The position numbers and the translations under genes are program-made. Below are positions 11,983 to 52,909 of a DNA stretch of 64,000 bases, piece by piece (positions within the stretch are counted from its first letter, which is position 1; the number at the start of each line of letters is the position of its first letter). Source of the stretch: a virus (lineage: Duplodnaviria > Caudoviricetes); IMG/VR virus record IMGVR_UViG_3300033407_000004, positions 1 to 64,000 of that record. One strand, 5' to 3'. The notes under the pieces were generated by a model, which had not been told where the DNA came from, did no database searches, and saw only the letters and a list, made by a program, of their open reading frames with translations.

Positions 11983-13146
11983 CCCCACGGCTAAAGCCGA
12001 GGAATTCCAGATGCGATTCATATTCTAACCTCGCGTTCGAGGGCGATTCCCGCCCCGGCAATAAGCGTGTTCATGGCCGCATTGCAATCGCGGTCATGAG
12101 CGGTTCCACAAACCGTGCACGTCCATTGCCTTACCGCAAGCCCACTCAGTCCTTTGGGGCCGGATAACACCCCGCAAGATGAACAGGTCATGGTGGAAAA
12201 CCTTGAGGGAACTTCAACGAATCTCCTACCGCATTGACTGCTCTTGTAGGAAATAAACTGTCTGAGTTGCCCTGTAGCTGCCGATGATACCGATTTACCA
12301 AACTTCTTTGACATGCCCTTAAGGTTATCTTTTGAGAAACAGATCAATTCGTTTTCTGATACAAGGCGGCGAGAAAGTTTGTGATTGCGGTCCTTGCGCT
12401 GGTTCGCCATTTTCTCTTGAAGACGTGCTGTGAGCTTTTTGTCGTGGCCCCTTTGTGATTGCGCGAGACGTAACGCGCCCCCTTGAAGTTCCTTTGGATG
12501 CTCGATCTTTTCTCCGGTCGAAAGCGTAAGAAGCGTCTTAAACCCAGGGTCGATGCCAACCTGAGCGTTGCCAGTGATTGTGATTTCGTTCGGCGCTGCG
12601 TCTATAAATAAGCAAAGATGCCAACCAGAAGATCTCTTTACGATCCTGCCGCACTTGATCTTCTCGGCAGGCAATTCCTGTTTGTAAAAACGCACGGGGC
12701 CAAGTCCCGGAACGCTGATTCGGTTCTTCTTAGGTGGGCGAATCGGATCGGGGAATGGTATTGAGTTGAGTTTGTTTCTCTGTCCCTTTAGGTGCGGTTT
12801 CTTGCCGATCTTTTTGAAACATCGTTTCCATGCCGAGTGCGCATTTGATAAAATGCCCTGAATCGTATGGCTCGGAATGTCCAGCTTCTTCCCATGATCC
12901 GCAAGAATGTTTTGGAAATCCTTCGGCGTGTAATAAATCCCGTCCTTCGCGTCAAGTTCGATCTTGCGAACAGCCCAATTCCACACACCCGTTAGGTTAT
13001 TGAGCCATACCGCAAGGGTTGCTTCTTGTGCTTTGGTCAGTTTGAGTTTTAATTGTCGTTGAACCATAATGTACTTGCTCTCCTTTCGGGTAGAGAAAAA
13101 TGAACAAAAAAGTGACTAAGAAACCGCCTGCTTTAGCTGGCGGTAG
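11975..13146 (-). mobile_element. IS200/IS605-family TnpB-only element 1
   Basis: Right end GGAATTCCTCGGCTTTAGCCGTGGGGATGTTCAA (GAAT, hairpin, TCAA); left end hairpin CCGCCAGCTAAAGCAGGCGG after TGAT; no tnpA; left boundary inferred. Confidence 0.75.
12018..13067 (-). CDS. tnpB: TnpB-family RNA-guided endonuclease, divergent RuvC-II
   Basis: VGIDPG (RuvC-I), CSSCG...CTVCG Zn ribbon, HDRDCNAAMN (RuvC-III); usual ED motif reads FSKDNL. Confidence 0.85.
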   Translation of the reverse strand: MVQRQLKLKLTKAQEATLAVWLNNLTGVWNWAVRKIELDAKDGIYYTPKDFQNILADHGKKLDIPSHTIQGILSNAHSAWKRCFKKIGKKPHLKGQRNKLNSIPFPDPIRPPKKNRISVPGLGPVRFYKQELPAEKIKCGRIVKRSSGWHLCLFIDAAPNEITITGNAQVGIDPGFKTLLTLSTGEKIEHPKELQGGALRLAQSQRGHDKKLTARLQEKMANQRKDRNHKLSRRLVSENELICFSKDNLKGMSKKFGKSVSSAATGQLRQFISYKSSQCGRRFVEVPSRFSTMTCSSCGVLSGPKGLSGLAVRQWTCTVCGTAHDRDCNAAMNTLIAGAGIALEREVRI

Positions 13147-46861: not shown

Positions 46862-47434
46862 TTGTGTCCAGGAACGACGTGGATAATCGTATCCCGTGCC
46901 AGGCTCAGGGATCTGGCCGTCATTCCGCATAAGATCGAAAATGCACTCATCAACCAGAGGGCACTTGATGGCTATGTCGATGCTACTGCCATGTGTAAAG
47001 CCTCCGGGAAAGAATTCGGACATTACTACGAAAACAAGACAACAAAGGCTTTTCTTGCCGAGCTTTCTACCGTCATCGGAATTCCGATAACGCAACCTGT
47101 CTATAGAATTCAAGGCGGTAGGGCCGAACTTCAAGGCACTTGGGTTCATCCTGATGTTGCAATCAACCTTGGGCAATGGTGTTCTCCTAAATTTGCGGTT
47201 GCGGTTTCCCAATGGGTTCGTGAATGGATAACTGGAAAGTCAAAAATCGCTATTTTTCTAAATGACGTACAGCGCAAAAAAGCAAAAAAAGAGAATGAGT
47301 ATGGCGTATCAGCAACATTTTTGCCTGGCCACTTTAAGGCTTACACAGTTAAACTAAATCCGCTTGATGGAGTTTATTACTGTGACATCCGGCCCAACAT
47401 GCTTACCGACTCTTTGCTTTCCCACCACAAATGA
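46862..47434 (+). CDS. KilA-N domain protein (start uncertain)
   Basis: 'DGYVDATAMCKA', 'QGTWVHPDVAINLGQWCSPKFA'. Confidence 0.75.
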   Translation: MCPGTTWIIVSRARLRDLAVIPHKIENALINQRALDGYVDATAMCKASGKEFGHYYENKTTKAFLAELSTVIGIPITQPVYRIQGGRAELQGTWVHPDVAINLGQWCSPKFAVAVSQWVREWITGKSKIAIFLNDVQRKKAKKENEYGVSATFLPGHFKAYTVKLNPLDGVYYCDIRPNMLTDSLLSHHK

Positions 47435-47436
47435 GA

Positions 47437-47494
47437 TTCTAACAAGCAGGTCCAGACGGACGCGAACACCGCGCCGCTGACCTGCGCGTTAAAC
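47437..47494 (+). repeat. attC-like site 1 (58 bp)
   Basis: TTCTAAC-AAGCAGGTCCAG..CTGACCTGCGC-GTTAAAC; extra C in L''. Confidence 0.8.
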
Positions 47495-47495
47495 A

Positions 47496-47900
47496 CTACC
47501 AGCGTTCCGAATCATCGAATCTGACAATGAGTTCGGAGGCTAATTTATAAAGCCATTCCATCATTGCCACATGCTGCTTCCAACTGTGTTTCCCGCAAAG
47601 ATGAAGGTATCCGCCTTGCTGCTTTTTATCTCCCTCGCCTTCCTCTTCGCCAAACCATACATGACAACAGCCGTCCCACTTCATATATGCCGTGCAGTAA
47701 AGTTCCGTATCACAGGGCACATTTTCTTCGCCCCATGTAATTACTTCTTCAACCGTAACATTGATGTGCGTCTCGGATTTTTCTGTGATGGTAGCAATAA
47801 ATCCGATGTATCCGTCAGGTCCGACGAAGTGTTTAACCAGGGGATCGACTCTCTCTGGCTTATTCTCGCTCGGCGCTGGTTTTGTTTGTTCTGTGCTCAT
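47496..47900 (-). CDS. Hypothetical cassette gene A
   Basis: GAGGAG RBS and ATG 47900 lie inside attC site 2. Confidence 0.6.
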   Translation of the reverse strand: MSTEQTKPAPSENKPERVDPLVKHFVGPDGYIGFIATITEKSETHINVTVEEVITWGEENVPCDTELYCTAYMKWDGCCHVWFGEEEGEGDKKQQGGYLHLCGKHSWKQHVAMMEWLYKLASELIVRFDDSERW

Positions 47901-47934
47901 CGGTTTCTCCTCGGGGGGCATCCCCGCGTTAGCT
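47831..47934 (+). repeat. attC-like site 2 (104 bp)
   Basis: GTTTAAC-CAGGGGATCG...GCATCCCCGC-GTTAGCT. Confidence 0.7.
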
Positions 47935-48096
47935 CTTAACGTCCTTCTTCTTTCGGCGCGTTTCGGCTGATTTCTGAGCCATATCCCGCGCCTGCTCCGG
48001 TGTCAAAATACGGCGGGATTTGCTCCCGCCTTTGCTCGCCAATTCTTTTGCCGCTTTTTTGAGGCTGATTATGCCTCCGCAATGTGGGCACCTCAT
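47929..48096 (-). CDS. 55-aa basic protein with CxxC and KGG-like motif (cassette B gene 2)
   Basis: Hand-translated MRCPHCGG..SKGGSKSRRILTPEQARDMAQKSAETRRKK; TAATG coupling to upstream gene. Confidence 0.55.
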   Translation of the reverse strand: MRCPHCGGIISLKKAAKELASKGGSKSRRILTPEQARDMAQKSAETRRKKKDVKS

Positions 48097-48434
48097 TACT
48101 CGTCCTCGGCATCACGGGCAGTTTCGCGCTCAAAAATCAGGTCGCGTACCCGCTGCATAGACGATTCCGCGTCACCGTCCCAAAGCTCTGAGGACTCCTC
48201 TGCTGTAATAAGATCGTCCTCGATTGCATCCCGCTCCTCGCCAAGATACTCATAATAATCTGACCACCACTCGATAACTTGATCGGCGTCCTCGTGTCCC
48301 TCTACGTCTACCCGGCTCATCTCCCTGGAGCAATCGCCGTACATTGACGTTTCGCTGCCCGGTGCAAACTCCTGCTCCCACTCCATTACTTTTTCCGCGA
48401 AATCTTGCATCTTTTTTGTCTTATACTCGCTCAT
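48096..48434 (-). CDS. Acidic hypothetical protein (cassette B gene 1)
   Basis: GAGGAGG RBS, own promoter upstream. Confidence 0.6.
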   Translation of the reverse strand: MSEYKTKKMQDFAEKVMEWEQEFAPGSETSMYGDCSREMSRVDVEGHEDADQVIEWWSDYYEYLGEERDAIEDDLITAEESSELWDGDAESSMQRVRDLIFERETARDAEDE

Positions 48435-48487
48435 TGCCGCCTCCTCAAGATGCGGGCCTTTTGTGGTCCCGTCTTACTCTTGAGACA

Positions 48488-48516
48488 ATATTAGCATAAG
48501 CGGTTATGCTTGTCAA
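48488..48516 (-). promoter_or_regulatory. sigma70-type promoter with palindromic operator
   Basis: TTGACA-17 bp-TAATAT; AGCATAA-N4-TTATGCT palindrome fills the spacer. Confidence 0.7.
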
Positions 48517-48550
48517 GGGGTATTTGTAAAATAAATCTAAGTCAACACCG

Positions 48551-48608
48551 AGCTAACAAAACGATCCAGACGGGCGCTAAAATCGCGCCGCTGATCTGGA
48601 CGTTAGCT
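48551..48608 (+). repeat. attC-like site 3 (58 bp)
   Basis: AGCTAAC-AAAACGATCCAGACGGGCGC..GCGCCGCTGATCTGGAC-GTTAGCT. Confidence 0.85.
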
Positions 48609-49439
48609 CCTATAATCGTTCCATCTTACTGTTCTGAATACCTGCTTCGCGTTCACCCACCGGGCGAACCGGCGCTGATACTCGTTCCCCTTGTCCAGTG
48701 CCATAATGTACGGGTCGTATCCCATCGCGTCAATTACCATGACCCTGTGCATATCCTCTTCCGGGGTCGTGTGTCCGATCATCACGTACACCATGACCTT
48801 TGACACTTTCGCGGTTTTCAGGTGGCAGAGGCCGCGCAATACTTCCGCTTCATGCTCGGGGTAATCCCATGCGAAGTGAAGATACCCTTCGCGCTTCAAC
48901 TTCTTCACGGCCTGCGCCTGCTCCTCGCCTACGAGCCGAGCATCAAAGCCGTGTTCGATCACCGTCAACTTTGCGTCGGCGATCTCCGCGAACGTATCGC
49001 GCCAGTTCGGATCGGCAAACGTGTTATTGTTCATCAGCATGATCTTACTGAACCTTGGTTCGTGGAAATCCCAAATCGAATAATGCGTTTCATCGTTCCG
49101 TTGCTTCGGGACAATGCAAAAATCACACGTTCGAGGGCAAGCCTTGTACGTGTAGCCCATCGAATAATCAATCTTCGGATACAACGTATAGTCCGGCCTC
49201 ATCCGGTCCATCTCAGACGGCAATTTGCCCTCGGGATACTTCGGGCCTCCTACGAGATCCGCGACAGGATCAGGCGTACCCTGGAAGAGAACAGAGGCAT
49301 ACGTCAGGTCGGCGCTCGTCCCGGAGAACCACGGAAAATTCAGCGTCGTCTTGTCGCCCAACTTCCGATGATAGGCGCTGATTTTCATGGCCGCGAGGTT
49401 CGGCATTTTGCTATCGGGAGTATAGATATTTACGAGCAT
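48603..49439 (-). CDS. Radical SAM protein (cassette C)
   Basis: CxxxCxxC 'CPRTCDFC'; 'DSKMPNLAAMKISAYH' N-domain; in-frame upstream start at 49481 inside attC4 also possible. Confidence 0.8.
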   Translation of the reverse strand: MLVNIYTPDSKMPNLAAMKISAYHRKLGDKTTLNFPWFSGTSADLTYASVLFQGTPDPVADLVGGPKYPEGKLPSEMDRMRPDYTLYPKIDYSMGYTYKACPRTCDFCIVPKQRNDETHYSIWDFHEPRFSKIMLMNNNTFADPNWRDTFAEIADAKLTVIEHGFDARLVGEEQAQAVKKLKREGYLHFAWDYPEHEAEVLRGLCHLKTAKVSKVMVYVMIGHTTPEEDMHRVMVIDAMGYDPYIMALDKGNEYQRRFARWVNAKQVFRTVRWNDYRS

Positions 49440-49453
49440 AGTTTGTAAACCTG

Positions 49454-49510
49454 GGCTAACCAACGTATCGACGGGTCGCAAGACCCGCGCCCGTCATCCG
49501 GGCGTTATCG
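49454..49510 (+). repeat. attC-like site 4 (57 bp)
   Basis: GGCTAAC-CAACGTATCGACGGG..CCCGTCATCCGGGC-GTTATCG. Confidence 0.8.
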
Positions 49511-49867
49511 TGTCACATAGTTTAGGATTTCCATTTTTAATTTTTTTATCTTTTTATTTGTTAATATATGCTCATTGTGTTCGTCGTTGCAGTCGGCCCA
49601 TTCGAAAAAACAATATCGAGTTATCTTATTCTTATTTTTTATACACTCTTGCAATATCGGAATGCACTGTGGATAAATCTTATATCGTTTTTTTACCATT
49701 TCATATGAAATTGGTACATCTCGCTCGGCAATTTCGTTATTATCCCAACAAACATCATTTATATGATCAAGCTCGCTGCATTTTTCTTGCGCAGCCGCAG
49801 TCGAAATCAAAAAAGCGACGATAACAAAAGCGTCGAGCAAGCGCCTATATTCTTTTTTCTGTTTCAT
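49505..49867 (-). CDS. AT-rich, Cys-containing hypothetical protein with signal-like segment (cassette D)
   Basis: GGAGG RBS and ATG 49867 inside attC5; 'FVIVAFLISTAAAQ'. Confidence 0.55.
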   Translation of the reverse strand: MKQKKEYRRLLDAFVIVAFLISTAAAQEKCSELDHINDVCWDNNEIAERDVPISYEMVKKRYKIYPQCIPILQECIKNKNKITRYCFFEWADCNDEHNEHILTNKKIKKLKMEILNYVTR

Positions 49868-49908
49868 TCGGTCCTCCATTTCCGGCGTTGCTCACGCCTC
49901 CGTTATCT
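49819..49908 (+). repeat. attC-like site 5 (90 bp)
   Basis: CGATAAC-AAAAGCGTCGAGCAAGCGCC...GGCGTTGCTCACGCCTCC-GTTATCT. Confidence 0.8.
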
Positions 49909-50112
49909 AATTAACTGCAAGCGTTCAATGAGTTTCGCGTGATTTTTTACGATACCCATAAACGGCTGAACGATGTAATGCGGCTCTTGACTGCACTTGT
50001 CAGCCGCCGCAAGTAATTCTATACACAACGATTTTAATTCTTCCGTTTCTTGATACTGATTCACAATTTTGGCGCACATTCTCATCTCCTCAACCCCTCC
50101 ACGCGCTCGCAA
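49903..50112 (-). CDS. Hypothetical protein
   Basis: Stop codon coincides with attC5 R' triplet. Confidence 0.45.
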   Translation of the reverse strand: MRARGGVEEMRMCAKIVNQYQETEELKSLCIELLAAADKCSQEPHYIVQPFMGIVKNHAKLIERLQLIR

Positions 50113-50335: not shown

Positions 50336-50761
50336 CTATTGTAATCGCCTTACTGCTTCCGTAAATGAAACTCCGTACACCTTACTTGCTACTCCGATGC
50401 TGTCGTCTTGGTATCCACATGACCAGCATTTCACATGGTTGTTTTTTATTCTCATCGACGGTCTCTTATCTACATGCTCACCGCTGATACAGGTTGCCAC
50501 TCCTCGATTGCAATCAATCAGGTTTTCTATCGGGTAATCTTTCGCTCTGGCTATCATCTCATCAGTGATTTTAAATTTGCCCGGCATCGGTTTTATCTCT
50601 TGTGTCCATTCCCTGATTAATTTTCTCGCCCTCTTTTCACTGGAGGATTGCGCCCTCCTCCATGCTTCCGCTTGCCACTGCTCTTCTTCAATCGAGACGC
50701 TGTGATTACAATACATTGGGCTGATGCGCTTCAGCCGTCTGAGTATTATCTGTTTTACCAT
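50336..50761 (-). CDS. CHC2 zinc-finger (primase ZBD) protein without TOPRIM domain
   Basis: 'CISGEHVDKRPSM...KCWSCG'. Confidence 0.75.
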   Translation of the reverse strand: MVKQIILRRLKRISPMYCNHSVSIEEEQWQAEAWRRAQSSSEKRARKLIREWTQEIKPMPGKFKITDEMIARAKDYPIENLIDCNRGVATCISGEHVDKRPSMRIKNNHVKCWSCGYQDDSIGVASKVYGVSFTEAVRRLQ

Positions 50762-52244
50762 TCCGATTGTTCCTGTTCGCGTTTTTTATGTTCAGGTATT
50801 TTATCAGTCTCAACGTTTCCTCTGACGGATAAACTGCATTTGGCCGTTCACGTGGTACTGATCCGTAAAGCTCTTTGCATTTATACCATGCCCAGCCATC
50901 CTTGAATCCTTTGCTTTGTGCATACCCCCTGAGCTCCGCATATATTTTATTCCGATCCGCCACGGGGGTTTCGACAAGTTTACCTTTCTTCTTGCTCATT
51001 TTCACAAGCTCACCGTCTGCGGTTTCGACCGTGTTTTTTTGTTTCGGCAGCTCATGACCGCACCGTGGACACTTTATGTTTTTCCTCGACAACAGTGCTG
51101 AGCATTTCGGGCAAAGAACTGGAAGACTTTCACTCTTCTTTTTTTCTTCTTTGGCAATTTCCTTTTTGTCTCTTGGTTTCCCGTCGTCCAACACTAAAGG
51201 CAGGTCGTCAGTCGGGAATCCAAGGCGACGACATGTCCCAGAGTGGTCGAGAATAGTGGCCTTCGACTTTCCTTCTATCGGTCTCAAGATACGTCCAGCC
51301 ATTTGAATATATCGAATCAGGCTCCTCGTGGGCCTAGCCAGTATCAGCACTTCACATGCCGGGAAATCCCAGCCTTCCTGAAGAATTCCGACGTTTGAAA
51401 TTATTTTTGTTTTGCCACTCGTCACCCGCGATAGAATATTACTGCGCTCTTCGTCGTCGGTATAGCAGTCGATATGCTCGGCAGATACGCCTATAGCGTT
51501 GAATTGCTCAACGATGTGCTTTGAGTGAGCGATATTTGTAGCAAAGCACACAGTCGGTTTATTCTCTGCCAGCTTCGTCCAATGTACCACGATATCGCCA
51601 ATCAGCTTTTCTTTATCAACCGCCTCACCCAGCTGCGTCTCGTTGTAGTCGCCTGCTACTATTTTCACTTTCGACAGGTCCGGCTCGCTCGGCGAGTAAA
51701 TATCGCAATCAACGAGAAAGCCCTCGTCAATCAGTTCACGTATCGTTGCCGCTGATGTGATATCTTCCCAAAGTTTTCCCCAGGTGTGTTCTTTCGACAT
51801 GCCTTTTGCAAACGGCGTAGCGGTCAGGCCAACAATAATCTTGCCCTTATAATGCTCCATGAGACGATGATACGCTTTTGATGAAGCCGTTCCGTGCGCC
51901 TCGTCAATCACCACGATATCGGCTTCAGGATATCCTCTTTTGTCTATGCTTTGAATGGAGCATACCTGAACCGGCTCATACGTCATCCTGGTATTTGATC
52001 CCTGAATTATTCCGTGGGATATCCCATCCCTTGAAATTCTGCGCGAGGTTTGATTGACAAGTTCAATTCGATTGCAGAGAAATATAATCCTCTTCGCCAT
52101 CGCTATGGCTCGCCTGATAATCTCCAGCGCGATTAATGTTTTTCCCGAGCCAGTAGGTGAATACAGTACCGCTCTTTTTTTACCGGAATAGAAAATCTCC
52201 CCTAGGGATAAAATCGCTTTTGTCTGATATGGCCTTAATTGCAT
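50706..52244 (-). CDS. SF2 DEAD/DEAH-box helicase with C-terminal Zn ribbon
   Basis: 'LRPYQ', 'PTGSGKT', 'IDEAH', 'LTATP', 'QMAGRILR', CPKC/CPRC. Confidence 0.92.
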   Translation of the reverse strand: MQLRPYQTKAILSLGEIFYSGKKRAVLYSPTGSGKTLIALEIIRRAIAMAKRIIFLCNRIELVNQTSRRISRDGISHGIIQGSNTRMTYEPVQVCSIQSIDKRGYPEADIVVIDEAHGTASSKAYHRLMEHYKGKIIVGLTATPFAKGMSKEHTWGKLWEDITSAATIRELIDEGFLVDCDIYSPSEPDLSKVKIVAGDYNETQLGEAVDKEKLIGDIVVHWTKLAENKPTVCFATNIAHSKHIVEQFNAIGVSAEHIDCYTDDEERSNILSRVTSGKTKIISNVGILQEGWDFPACEVLILARPTRSLIRYIQMAGRILRPIEGKSKATILDHSGTCRRLGFPTDDLPLVLDDGKPRDKKEIAKEEKKKSESLPVLCPKCSALLSRKNIKCPRCGHELPKQKNTVETADGELVKMSKKKGKLVETPVADRNKIYAELRGYAQSKGFKDGWAWYKCKELYGSVPRERPNAVYPSEETLRLIKYLNIKNANRNNRNGKTDNTQTAEAHQPNVL

Positions 52245-52287: not shown

Positions 52288-52743
52288 TTATCTTTTATTC
52301 TTAAAGGCGTCCTTGTCTTTGTCCTTGTCCTTGTCTTTGTCCTTGTCCTTGTCTTTGTCTTTAAGAGTATCGTTGACCACAACTAGACGACTAATTGAGG
52401 ACTCGTTGACCTCATTAAACCTAAGTCTTTGAATAATTGACAAATGCACCCTATTTGCAGGGTTTAAATGTTTGCCGTATTGGAATGCCAGGAAATCCAA
52501 AACGAACCATCTCCCGTTCTTCAGCACCTCTATTCGCGGTTTATCTGCGTTGAATTTCGATAGGGCATTATTGAGGTCAACTTGCACTCTAATTGTGGCC
52601 TCAAATATTCTTTTATTGGGCTTCCAAATTCCGGCATGGTCGCAGTCGTCAAGGATGAAAAACCAGAGAAACTTTTCCCCTGACGATAGATCGATAAACC
52701 AATCTTCTGTCCAGATTTCTGTTGCATGGAATCTCTTTGGCAT
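52288..52743 (-). CDS. Phage replication initiator-like protein (N-terminal wHTH plus DK repeat)
   Basis: 'TEIWTEDWFIDLS..EKFLWFFILDDCDHAG'; (DK)n tract; directly upstream of helicase. Confidence 0.6.
   Translation of the reverse strand: MPKRFHATEIWTEDWFIDLSSGEKFLWFFILDDCDHAGIWKPNKRIFEATIRVQVDLNNALSKFNADKPRIEVLKNGRWFVLDFLAFQYGKHLNPANRVHLSIIQRLRFNEVNESSISRLVVVNDTLKDKDKDKDKDKDKDKDKDAFKNKR
52310..52362. repeat. Hexamer tandem repeat (CYTTGT)n encoding DKDK; adjacent AT-rich tract 52265-52305
   Basis: About 9 units visible; candidate origin iterons. Confidence 0.6.
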
Positions 52744-52764
52744 GATGTCCTATCGAGCCTCAAA

Positions 52765-52864
52765 ACAAAATAACCGATCCATCCAGGAGTTTCCGAACGC
52801 AGTTTGGGGACCGCGTTCCCGCAGCTTTCGCTTTTGGGCATCCTGAATGAATCGGTTATTTTGT
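52765..52864 (-). ncRNA. Candidate structured leader/antisense RNA (24-bp closing stem)
   Basis: Arms 52765-52788 and 52841-52864; two mismatches are G-U pairs on the - strand; internal GAAA tetraloop. Confidence 0.5.
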
Positions 52865-52909
52865 TGAGATAGATTTTTCATAAGAGTCGGAAAACCCTCA
52901 AGCCTGCAC

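Follow-up and report, generated by a model that had tools for sequence, protein, structure and literature searches.

The question raised by positions 47437-49908 of this stretch is whether a tailed phage carries gene cassettes of the integron type and, if so, what could have moved them. The window (the whole stretch of DNA analyzed, 64,000 nucleotides) is the first 64 kb of a linear 76,133-bp IMG/VR virus record (IMGVR_UViG_3300033407_000004; completeness estimate, 89%) from an uncultured soil tailed phage. A preliminary description had proposed an array of integron-type attC sites of the kind known as attC-site clusters that have no integron integrase (CALINs), shaped by recombination at G|TT. 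This proposal is supported by the structure of the sites, by the cross-recognition of known attC sites, and by a complementarity signature in the terminal boxes. We consider it highly probable that the locus is a genuine integron-type CALIN, one of two in this phage, with a reversed cassette polarity and an integrase that most likely acts in trans. The five sites (s1 to s5) and four cassettes of array 1 are as follows.

47437 to 47494, minus strand: attC s1, the last site in the direction of transcription; its bottom strand is the minus strand of the window, and the predicted crossover is G47488|T47489 (plus strand)
47489 to 47928, minus strand: cassette 1, 440 bp; long attC s2 (47831-47934), then an open reading frame (ORF) of 134-141 aa (47496-47921)
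47929 to 48602, minus strand: cassette 2, 674 bp; attC s3 (48551-48608), a promoter, a 112-aa ORF (48096-48434), and an overlapping 55-aa ORF (47929-48096)
48603 to 49504, minus strand: cassette 3, 902 bp; attC s4 (49454-49510), then an ORF of 278-292 aa (48603-49481; likely start, 49439)
49505 to 49902, minus strand: cassette 4, 398 bp; long attC s5 (49819-49908) and an ORF of about 120 aa (49505-49879)

All five sites are bounded by TAAC and GTTA and have a spacer that does not pair, and in each stem the left (plus-strand) arm has extra bases. Folded as single-stranded DNA, four of the five outperform shuffled controls, with z scores of -5.3 (s1), -4.2, -3.3, and -2.6 (s5). Ten more attC sites (66404-69727) and ten cassettes form a second array on the plus strand beyond the window (genome 66404-70063; L001:6404-10063), which brings the total to 15 sites; each of the two divergent early operons has one array. 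In an alignment of the 11 short sites of both arrays, AAC and GTT are invariant, the R helix is 97.7% paired, and 85.6% of the cells are paired, compared with 26-44% after sliding the partners. Compensatory changes are seen in 10 of 18 pairs, and the covariation score was matched by none of 500 shuffles. Constrained folds and direct reading show that a G bulges out of the bottom strand 16-17 nt before its 3' end, mostly accompanied by a second bulge, with spacers of 3-6 nt; the same bulge geometry is found in attC_aadA1 by alignment. The sites are thus imperfect palindromes bounded by R'' and R', with extrahelical bases, a spacer, and covariation, as expected of attC.

A covariance model (R1) was built from the 11 short sites of the phage itself, the four long sites being held out. 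All four were found by R1 on the correct strand, with 27.9, 27.5, 21.4, and 13.6 bits; within array 1, the scores are 61.9 (s1), 13.6 (s2), 54.2 (s3), 63.3 (s4), and 21.4 bits (s5, E 0.0036). Over the 76 kb, R1 retrieves the 15 sites of the two arrays and otherwise nothing at E<0.4 except reverse-strand echoes of those sites; outside both arrays, no score in the 76 kb exceeds about 12 bits. The model also recognizes attC sites of known systems. In a 12-kb class 1 integron locus from a Salmonella plasmid (intI1, dfrA1, and aadA1), its top two matches, attC_aadA1 (36 bits, E 4e-8) and attC_dfrA1 (17 bits), coincide exactly with the coordinates of these sites and share the strand of intI1, opposite to that of the cassette genes. 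In Tetrasphaera phage TJE1, three sites score 35-37 bits, likewise with coordinates that agree exactly, and again on the strand opposite the genes. R1, a covariance model of the kind that the preliminary description had named as a check, thus did not reject the sites, and all five lie where that description had placed them.

The preliminary description had also pointed out that complementarity follows cassettes rather than sites, and the pairings it quoted hold. Counted from GTT, the boxes flanking one cassette are complementary over 8, 6, 8, and 10 nt in array 1, and over 5-11 nt (median 8) in both arrays taken together. Inside single sites, R-box complementarity extends over 3-8 nt, mostly 4, and only 4 of 212 control non-cassette pairings reach at least 7 nt. 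We read this cassette-wise complementarity as the residue of recombination at G|TT.

Left unmentioned in the preliminary description is that the genes occupy the bottom strand, contrary to classical cassettes. All cassette ORFs of both arrays, including the genes similar to phrog_9298 and to methyltransferases, are on the strand recognized by R1, which is therefore the coding strand; the classical arrangement, with the gene on the attC top strand and attC 3' of the gene, is not found in this phage. On the coding strand, each cassette reads C-attC-GTT, then the gene, then TAA, so that the hairpin stands ahead of the gene. This polarity is also supported independently of the bulges because array 2 opens with a hairpin directly after the NinB stop (GGTAA|C, genome 66407-66409) and closes with a hairpin-less box, GAGTCCAA|C (genome 70055-70063), which may be attI- or attG-like. 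We rest the assignment on genes supported by homology rather than on counts of open frames running into the sites, which in the viral contigs favor the bottom strand at 33 and the top strand at 10 of 47 sites in a crude and noisy measure.

The TAA of TAA|C serves as a stop codon in 9 of 14 cassettes and in both upstream backbone genes, as read directly. In the four long sites (s2 and s5, and D and H of array 2), the loop carries the ribosome-binding site and ATG of the gene. Thus, in cassette 1, the ribosome-binding site, the ATG, and the first ~23 codons are inside s2, and in cassette 4 the ribosome-binding site and ATG are in the s5 loop and the stop TAA is on the s4 crossover. The cassette 3 ORF matches phrog_9298, 'radical SAM domain protein' (E 3e-52), and its stop TAA is also on the crossover. 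Cassette 2 has its own sigma-70-like promoter (48516-48488; TTGACA-17-TAATAT, with TG) over an 18-bp palindrome. Of its two ORFs, neither of which has a Pfam or PHROG match, the 112-aa product is very acidic, and the 55-aa product is basic with a CxxC motif and ends on the TAA of the next R box; this layout resembles toxin-antitoxin or regulator cassettes of chromosomal integrons. In array 2, one cassette encodes a methyltransferase-like protein. As a separate observation, the long site s2 (47831-47934) and a long site of array 2 (L001:9139-9242) encode similar N-terminal peptides (M-S-x-E ... ENKP..VDPLV) in proteins that are otherwise unrelated, the similarity ending at the GTT box.

According to the mechanism that we propose, each unit would once have been a circle, inserted by an IntI-type tyrosine recombinase that would cut the folded bottom strand of attC at AA|C, which the top strand has as G|TT. 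The bottom strand is the coding strand, with the hairpin before the gene, at times holding its ribosome-binding site and start codon, and the stop TAA often falls on the next predicted crossover. Since both arrays start right after a TAA|C stop of the backbone, promoterless cassettes would be read through from the early operons.

What could have supplied the recombinase is less direct. As had been noted for the window, no integron integrase is present, and none is present in the rest of the record either: searches of the 76-kb record with TIGR02249 and PF00589 gave no candidate integron or tyrosine recombinase, while control genomes responded. The same record yielded no candidate serine recombinase (PF00239) or Y1 transposase (PF01797). 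With at least two attC sites and no integron integrase nearby, the array corresponds to a CALIN, for which a minimum of two sites is required (Qi et al. 2023, PMC9892861), and not to a complete integron, which has intI, attI, and the Pc promoter. The integrase would most likely act in trans, its source being the host, a co-infecting intI-bearing phage, or the missing ~11% of the genome. A trans-supplied integrase is compatible with the data because arrays without intI also occur in a 100%-complete 194-kb phage (with terminal repeats) and in a 96%-complete 35-kb phage.

Other phages carry the same type of site. A pattern derived from the sites matches eight other viral contigs; seven of these have 2-9 R1 hits apiece, all on a single strand per locus save for one reverse-strand echo, and the eighth (L007) has none. 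The same 57-nt attC, with 0-3 core mismatches, has two copies in this phage, two in L009, and a single copy in L011, L012, L013, and a Nitrospiraceae-binned contig, with different outer boxes and cargo in each; site J has the same core as s4, as do sites in four further viral contigs. A comparison of cassette content in related phages, suggested at the outset, is provided by L009, which the attC pattern scan had retrieved and which belongs to a phage record of 96% completeness. Its helicase and that of the window share 70% identity, and an array with the same attC lies at the same place, directly downstream of the helicase gene, with other genes. None of the four loci from the helicase search has sites. 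In L008, a homolog of the methyltransferase-like cassette gene (48% identity) lies between two sites. Among 50,697 deposited phage genomes, BLAST found nothing that matches the s4 attC.

Two viral contigs with arrays also encode an IntI. G001 (IMGVR_UViG_3300032173_000020), one of the eight contigs, is a true phage with terminase, portal, and tail genes. Its array is followed by a cassette end and non-hairpin sequence (an attI-like junction) and, about 50 nt further on, by intI (292 bits, cut-off 265). It shares with the phage under study the attC family, the reversed polarity, and an array running along transcription; unlike it, G001 has both intI and a separate phage integrase. In G004, intI (436 bits) is 2.5 kb from the array. 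The array genes of G001 and G004 (MT-A70, DUF7693) are on the bottom strand. Relatives of the G001 IntI (61-79% identity) were found in four more viral contigs, two of which have a site just upstream. In G001, a 224-bp ORF-less cassette is found in tandem at the contig end and again at the start, by the attI-like junction and intI (L021:1-330, L022:14960-15290), which points to a recent duplication at attI and to a genome that is circular or permuted.

For the host, Nitrospirota are a lead only. A scan of 185,579 species genomes with the attC pattern gave 25 loci, about the chance expectation, and the four best model scores of that scan (48-54 bits) are all from Nitrospirota metagenome-assembled genomes, two of which have several intI genes. 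In the Nitrospiraceae-binned contig (L037:1321-1377), the gene for a 1041-aa phage-type primase has, just upstream, an attC that differs from s4 at 3 positions; either this is phage DNA that was mis-binned, or it derives from a phage or prophage of the host named by the bin. Nitrospirota stay at the level of a lead because the evidence includes a phage-type primase on one contig and because Nitrospirota IntI and the phage IntI clade share only 33-36% identity. Among the three bacterial arrays of this attC family that were examined, both Cupriavidus arrays have genes on the top strand, and the Nitrospirota one (L038) is mixed by frame count.

The stretch is present in soil metagenomes, and contigs from the probable source run bear on whether the array still recombines. 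Of the Logan contigs of this run, one ends at 47491, one spans 47462-48630, and one restarts at 48601. A 55-nt contig with a depth of 3.1 (neighbors, 9-13) aligns with 48584-48630, with three mismatched letters and eight left over. A deletion between s1 and s3 is predicted to give 25 new 31-mers, a 55-nt unitig, three mismatches, and eight clipped letters; all of these agree with what is seen, as do the breakpoints, and the breakpoint 30-mers are unique in the genome. This strong but indirect evidence, drawn from contig coordinates, length, and mismatch count, suggests a minor variant without exactly cassettes 1 and 2, with a crossover at G|TT. Because the contig-graph pattern fits such a two-cassette deletion, swapping appears to continue. 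The segment concerned is the following.

47492 to 48605, no strand assigned: segment apparently absent in the minor variant; 1114 bp, corresponding to cassettes 1 and 2, with the left part of s1 joined to the right part of s3 in the shared CGTTA

In another soil run, from 2025 (X4), two mismatch-free contigs abut exactly at 49905/49906, lacking the overlap that such contigs normally have; the s5 crossover is 3 nt away.

The genomic setting differs from that first suggested. The preliminary description had placed the array in a phage nin region; array 1 instead occupies the distal end of the leftward replication operon, with the helicase and primase genes on one side and the KilA-N and terminase genes on the other, and it is the second array that NinB borders, at genome 66404. 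The leftward early operon encodes a helicase, a primase-type zinc ribbon, a DNA methyltransferase, and an RNA ligase; the rightward operon, from ~61 kb, encodes an SbcC-like ATPase, RecT, a metallo-hydrolase, and NinB, and after array 2 come an 89-aa ORF and an HNH endonuclease gene. The neighbors of array 1 are listed here.

40.4 to 45.6 kb, minus strand: terminase small and large subunits and portal
46862 to 47434, plus strand (opposite to the array): KilA-N domain gene (PF04383, E 2e-22), the downstream flank, abutting s1
49903 to 50112, minus strand: backbone 69-aa ORF, whose stop TAA (49905-49903) followed by C is the upstream array boundary, AGATAA|C
50336 to 52244, minus strand: helicase (50706-52244) and primase-type zinc-ribbon protein (50336-50761), the backbone upstream of array 1

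Three other features of the window were recorded. A 349-aa TnpB (OrfB_IS605 with a Cas12f1-like TNB domain) is encoded at 12018-13067, within the tail-fiber region, and no TnpA (Y1 transposase) was found anywhere in the record. A 110-bp near-perfect palindrome at 52760-52869, with ends AAAATAAC/GTTATTTT and neither bulges nor a spacer, is not scored by the attC model; it could represent a degenerate site, an origin, or a cruciform with a regulatory role. Finally, a GTCCTTGTCTTT-type repeat at the 3' end of a 151-aa ORF (52308-52359) has a depth of 166 versus 12 in all metagenomes, with many loose ends; this depth jump is low-complexity cross-mapping unrelated to the array.

Several points weigh against reading the locus as a CALIN that is still recombined in trans. 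No integrase was found, so that recombination of these particular sites by an IntI is a prediction. R1 is derived from the sites themselves, so that only its cross-recognition of other attC sites counts as independent. Taken alone, s2 is weak, its single-stranded fold being no better than shuffles (z -1.0); it is backed by its likeness to the long site H of array 2 (69 of 104 positions identical, arms shared). No closing R box was recognized beyond s1 in array 1. RecT-related phages (44-65% identity) have no such sites, no close whole-genome relative was found for a comparison of cassette order, and the portal protein has no relatives in IMG/VR. As for the deletion variant, the depths around it (12, 13.3, 3.1, 8.9) do not sum, and replication slippage at the 5-nt microhomology would give an identical junction.

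Three other explanations have to be considered. The phage might encode its own intI in the missing ~11% of its genome and would then carry a complete phage integron like that of G001, not a host-dependent CALIN. A linear record that is 89% complete, with an ORF running off its left end, leaves room for such a gene, and G001 and four further viral contigs do have a distinct IntI clade (61-79% identity to each other), some of its genes lying just after such sites. However, intI comes directly after the array in G001, whereas array 2 is followed here by the 89-aa ORF and HNH gene and array 1 by the KilA-N gene, and the 100%-complete and 96%-complete phages have arrays without intI; we therefore see this explanation as unlikely. 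That the arrays are inert relics, a stretch of bacterial integron acquired once by illegitimate recombination and no longer recombining, strikes us as less probable again. It would agree with a record without integrase, and such routes have been discussed for phage CALINs by Qi et al. (PMC9892861). Yet the phage has two arrays, each co-oriented with its own operon, and both boundaries are exactly AA|C at backbone stop codons. The polarity is, moreover, opposite to that of two of the three arrays examined in bacteria with attC of this family (the third being mixed), L009 is a module-level relative with the same attC and place and different cargo, and the contig pattern fits a two-cassette variant.

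The hairpins lie between genes on the transcribed strand and are therefore carried in mRNA, which raises the possibility of intercistronic RNA or DNA structures, such as terminators or processing sites; the TnpB-only insertion sequence elsewhere in the genome likewise brings to mind repeats resembling repetitive extragenic palindromes or miniature inverted-repeat transposable elements, moved by another enzyme. We find this scarcely probable at all: no T-run follows the hairpins, a terminator scan found none at the sites, and the cassette-wise complementarity of the boxes is left unexplained. The extra bases are at the position found in attC, with a G 16-17 nt from the 3' end, R1 cross-recognizes real attC sites, and Y1 transposase and serine recombinase are absent from the record. 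An integron-type CALIN with its integrase acting in trans remains our preferred interpretation.

The kind of element is already known, since phage attC clusters without integrase have been published, and attC sites of TJE1 were recombined by IntI1 (Qi et al. 2023, PMC9892861). As in those phage CALINs, the arrays described here have no intI, and their cargo consists of small genes of unknown function and methyltransferases; unlike TJE1, in which genes are on the attC top strand in the classical manner, every cassette gene is on the bottom strand. The resemblance to class 1 cassettes (dfrA1-aadA1) extends to the R''-L''-loop-L'-R' organization, the invariant AAC and GTT, the unpaired spacer, the predicted G|TT crossover, the extra bases on the 3' arm of the bottom strand, and the complementarity per cassette. 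In contrast to class 1 integrons, the phage array lacks intI, attI, and Pc, its genes are reversed with the hairpin first, and expression would come from a phage operon instead of Pc. A further parallel is offered by the insertion of cassettes at genomic attG sites (5'-GWT-3'), which gives CALINs or single attC sites lacking integron integrases (SALINs), as described for IntI1 acting on classical cassettes in E. coli (Loot et al., bioRxiv 10.1101/2022.09.11.507474). Like these products, the phage arrays have no neighboring integrase gene and show, at one end, a G|TT junction without a hairpin; both start at a TAA|C stop, whose complement reads G|TTA. In a phage operon, stop codons of the backbone may have served as insertion points, which would by itself set the reversed polarity. 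In the literature searched, we did not find the reversed polarity, twin arrays following operons, stop-codon boundaries, or an apparent natural excision variant.

Bacterial integrons were recently found to store anti-phage defense cassettes. A broader proposal, which we put forward tentatively and with somewhat more doubt than belief, is that of a phage-adapted reversed integron mirroring these bacterial stores. Its cassettes would join early operons at TAA|C stops, would be moved by the phage IntI clade or by a host IntI, would be exchanged among unrelated phages sharing one attC type, and would still be active in soil. The reversed polarity predicts which strand recombines, and predicts expression from phage operons instead of Pc. 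Because genes end on the crossover, a route by which resident phage genes could become cassettes is also suggested, and the apparent two-cassette variant would be a direct handle on activity in nature. If this proposal is true, phages stock and swap early accessory genes, including methyltransferases, using the same recombination machinery; both sides of the arms race would then use one cassette-exchange system, and cassettes could cross between phages and bacteria.

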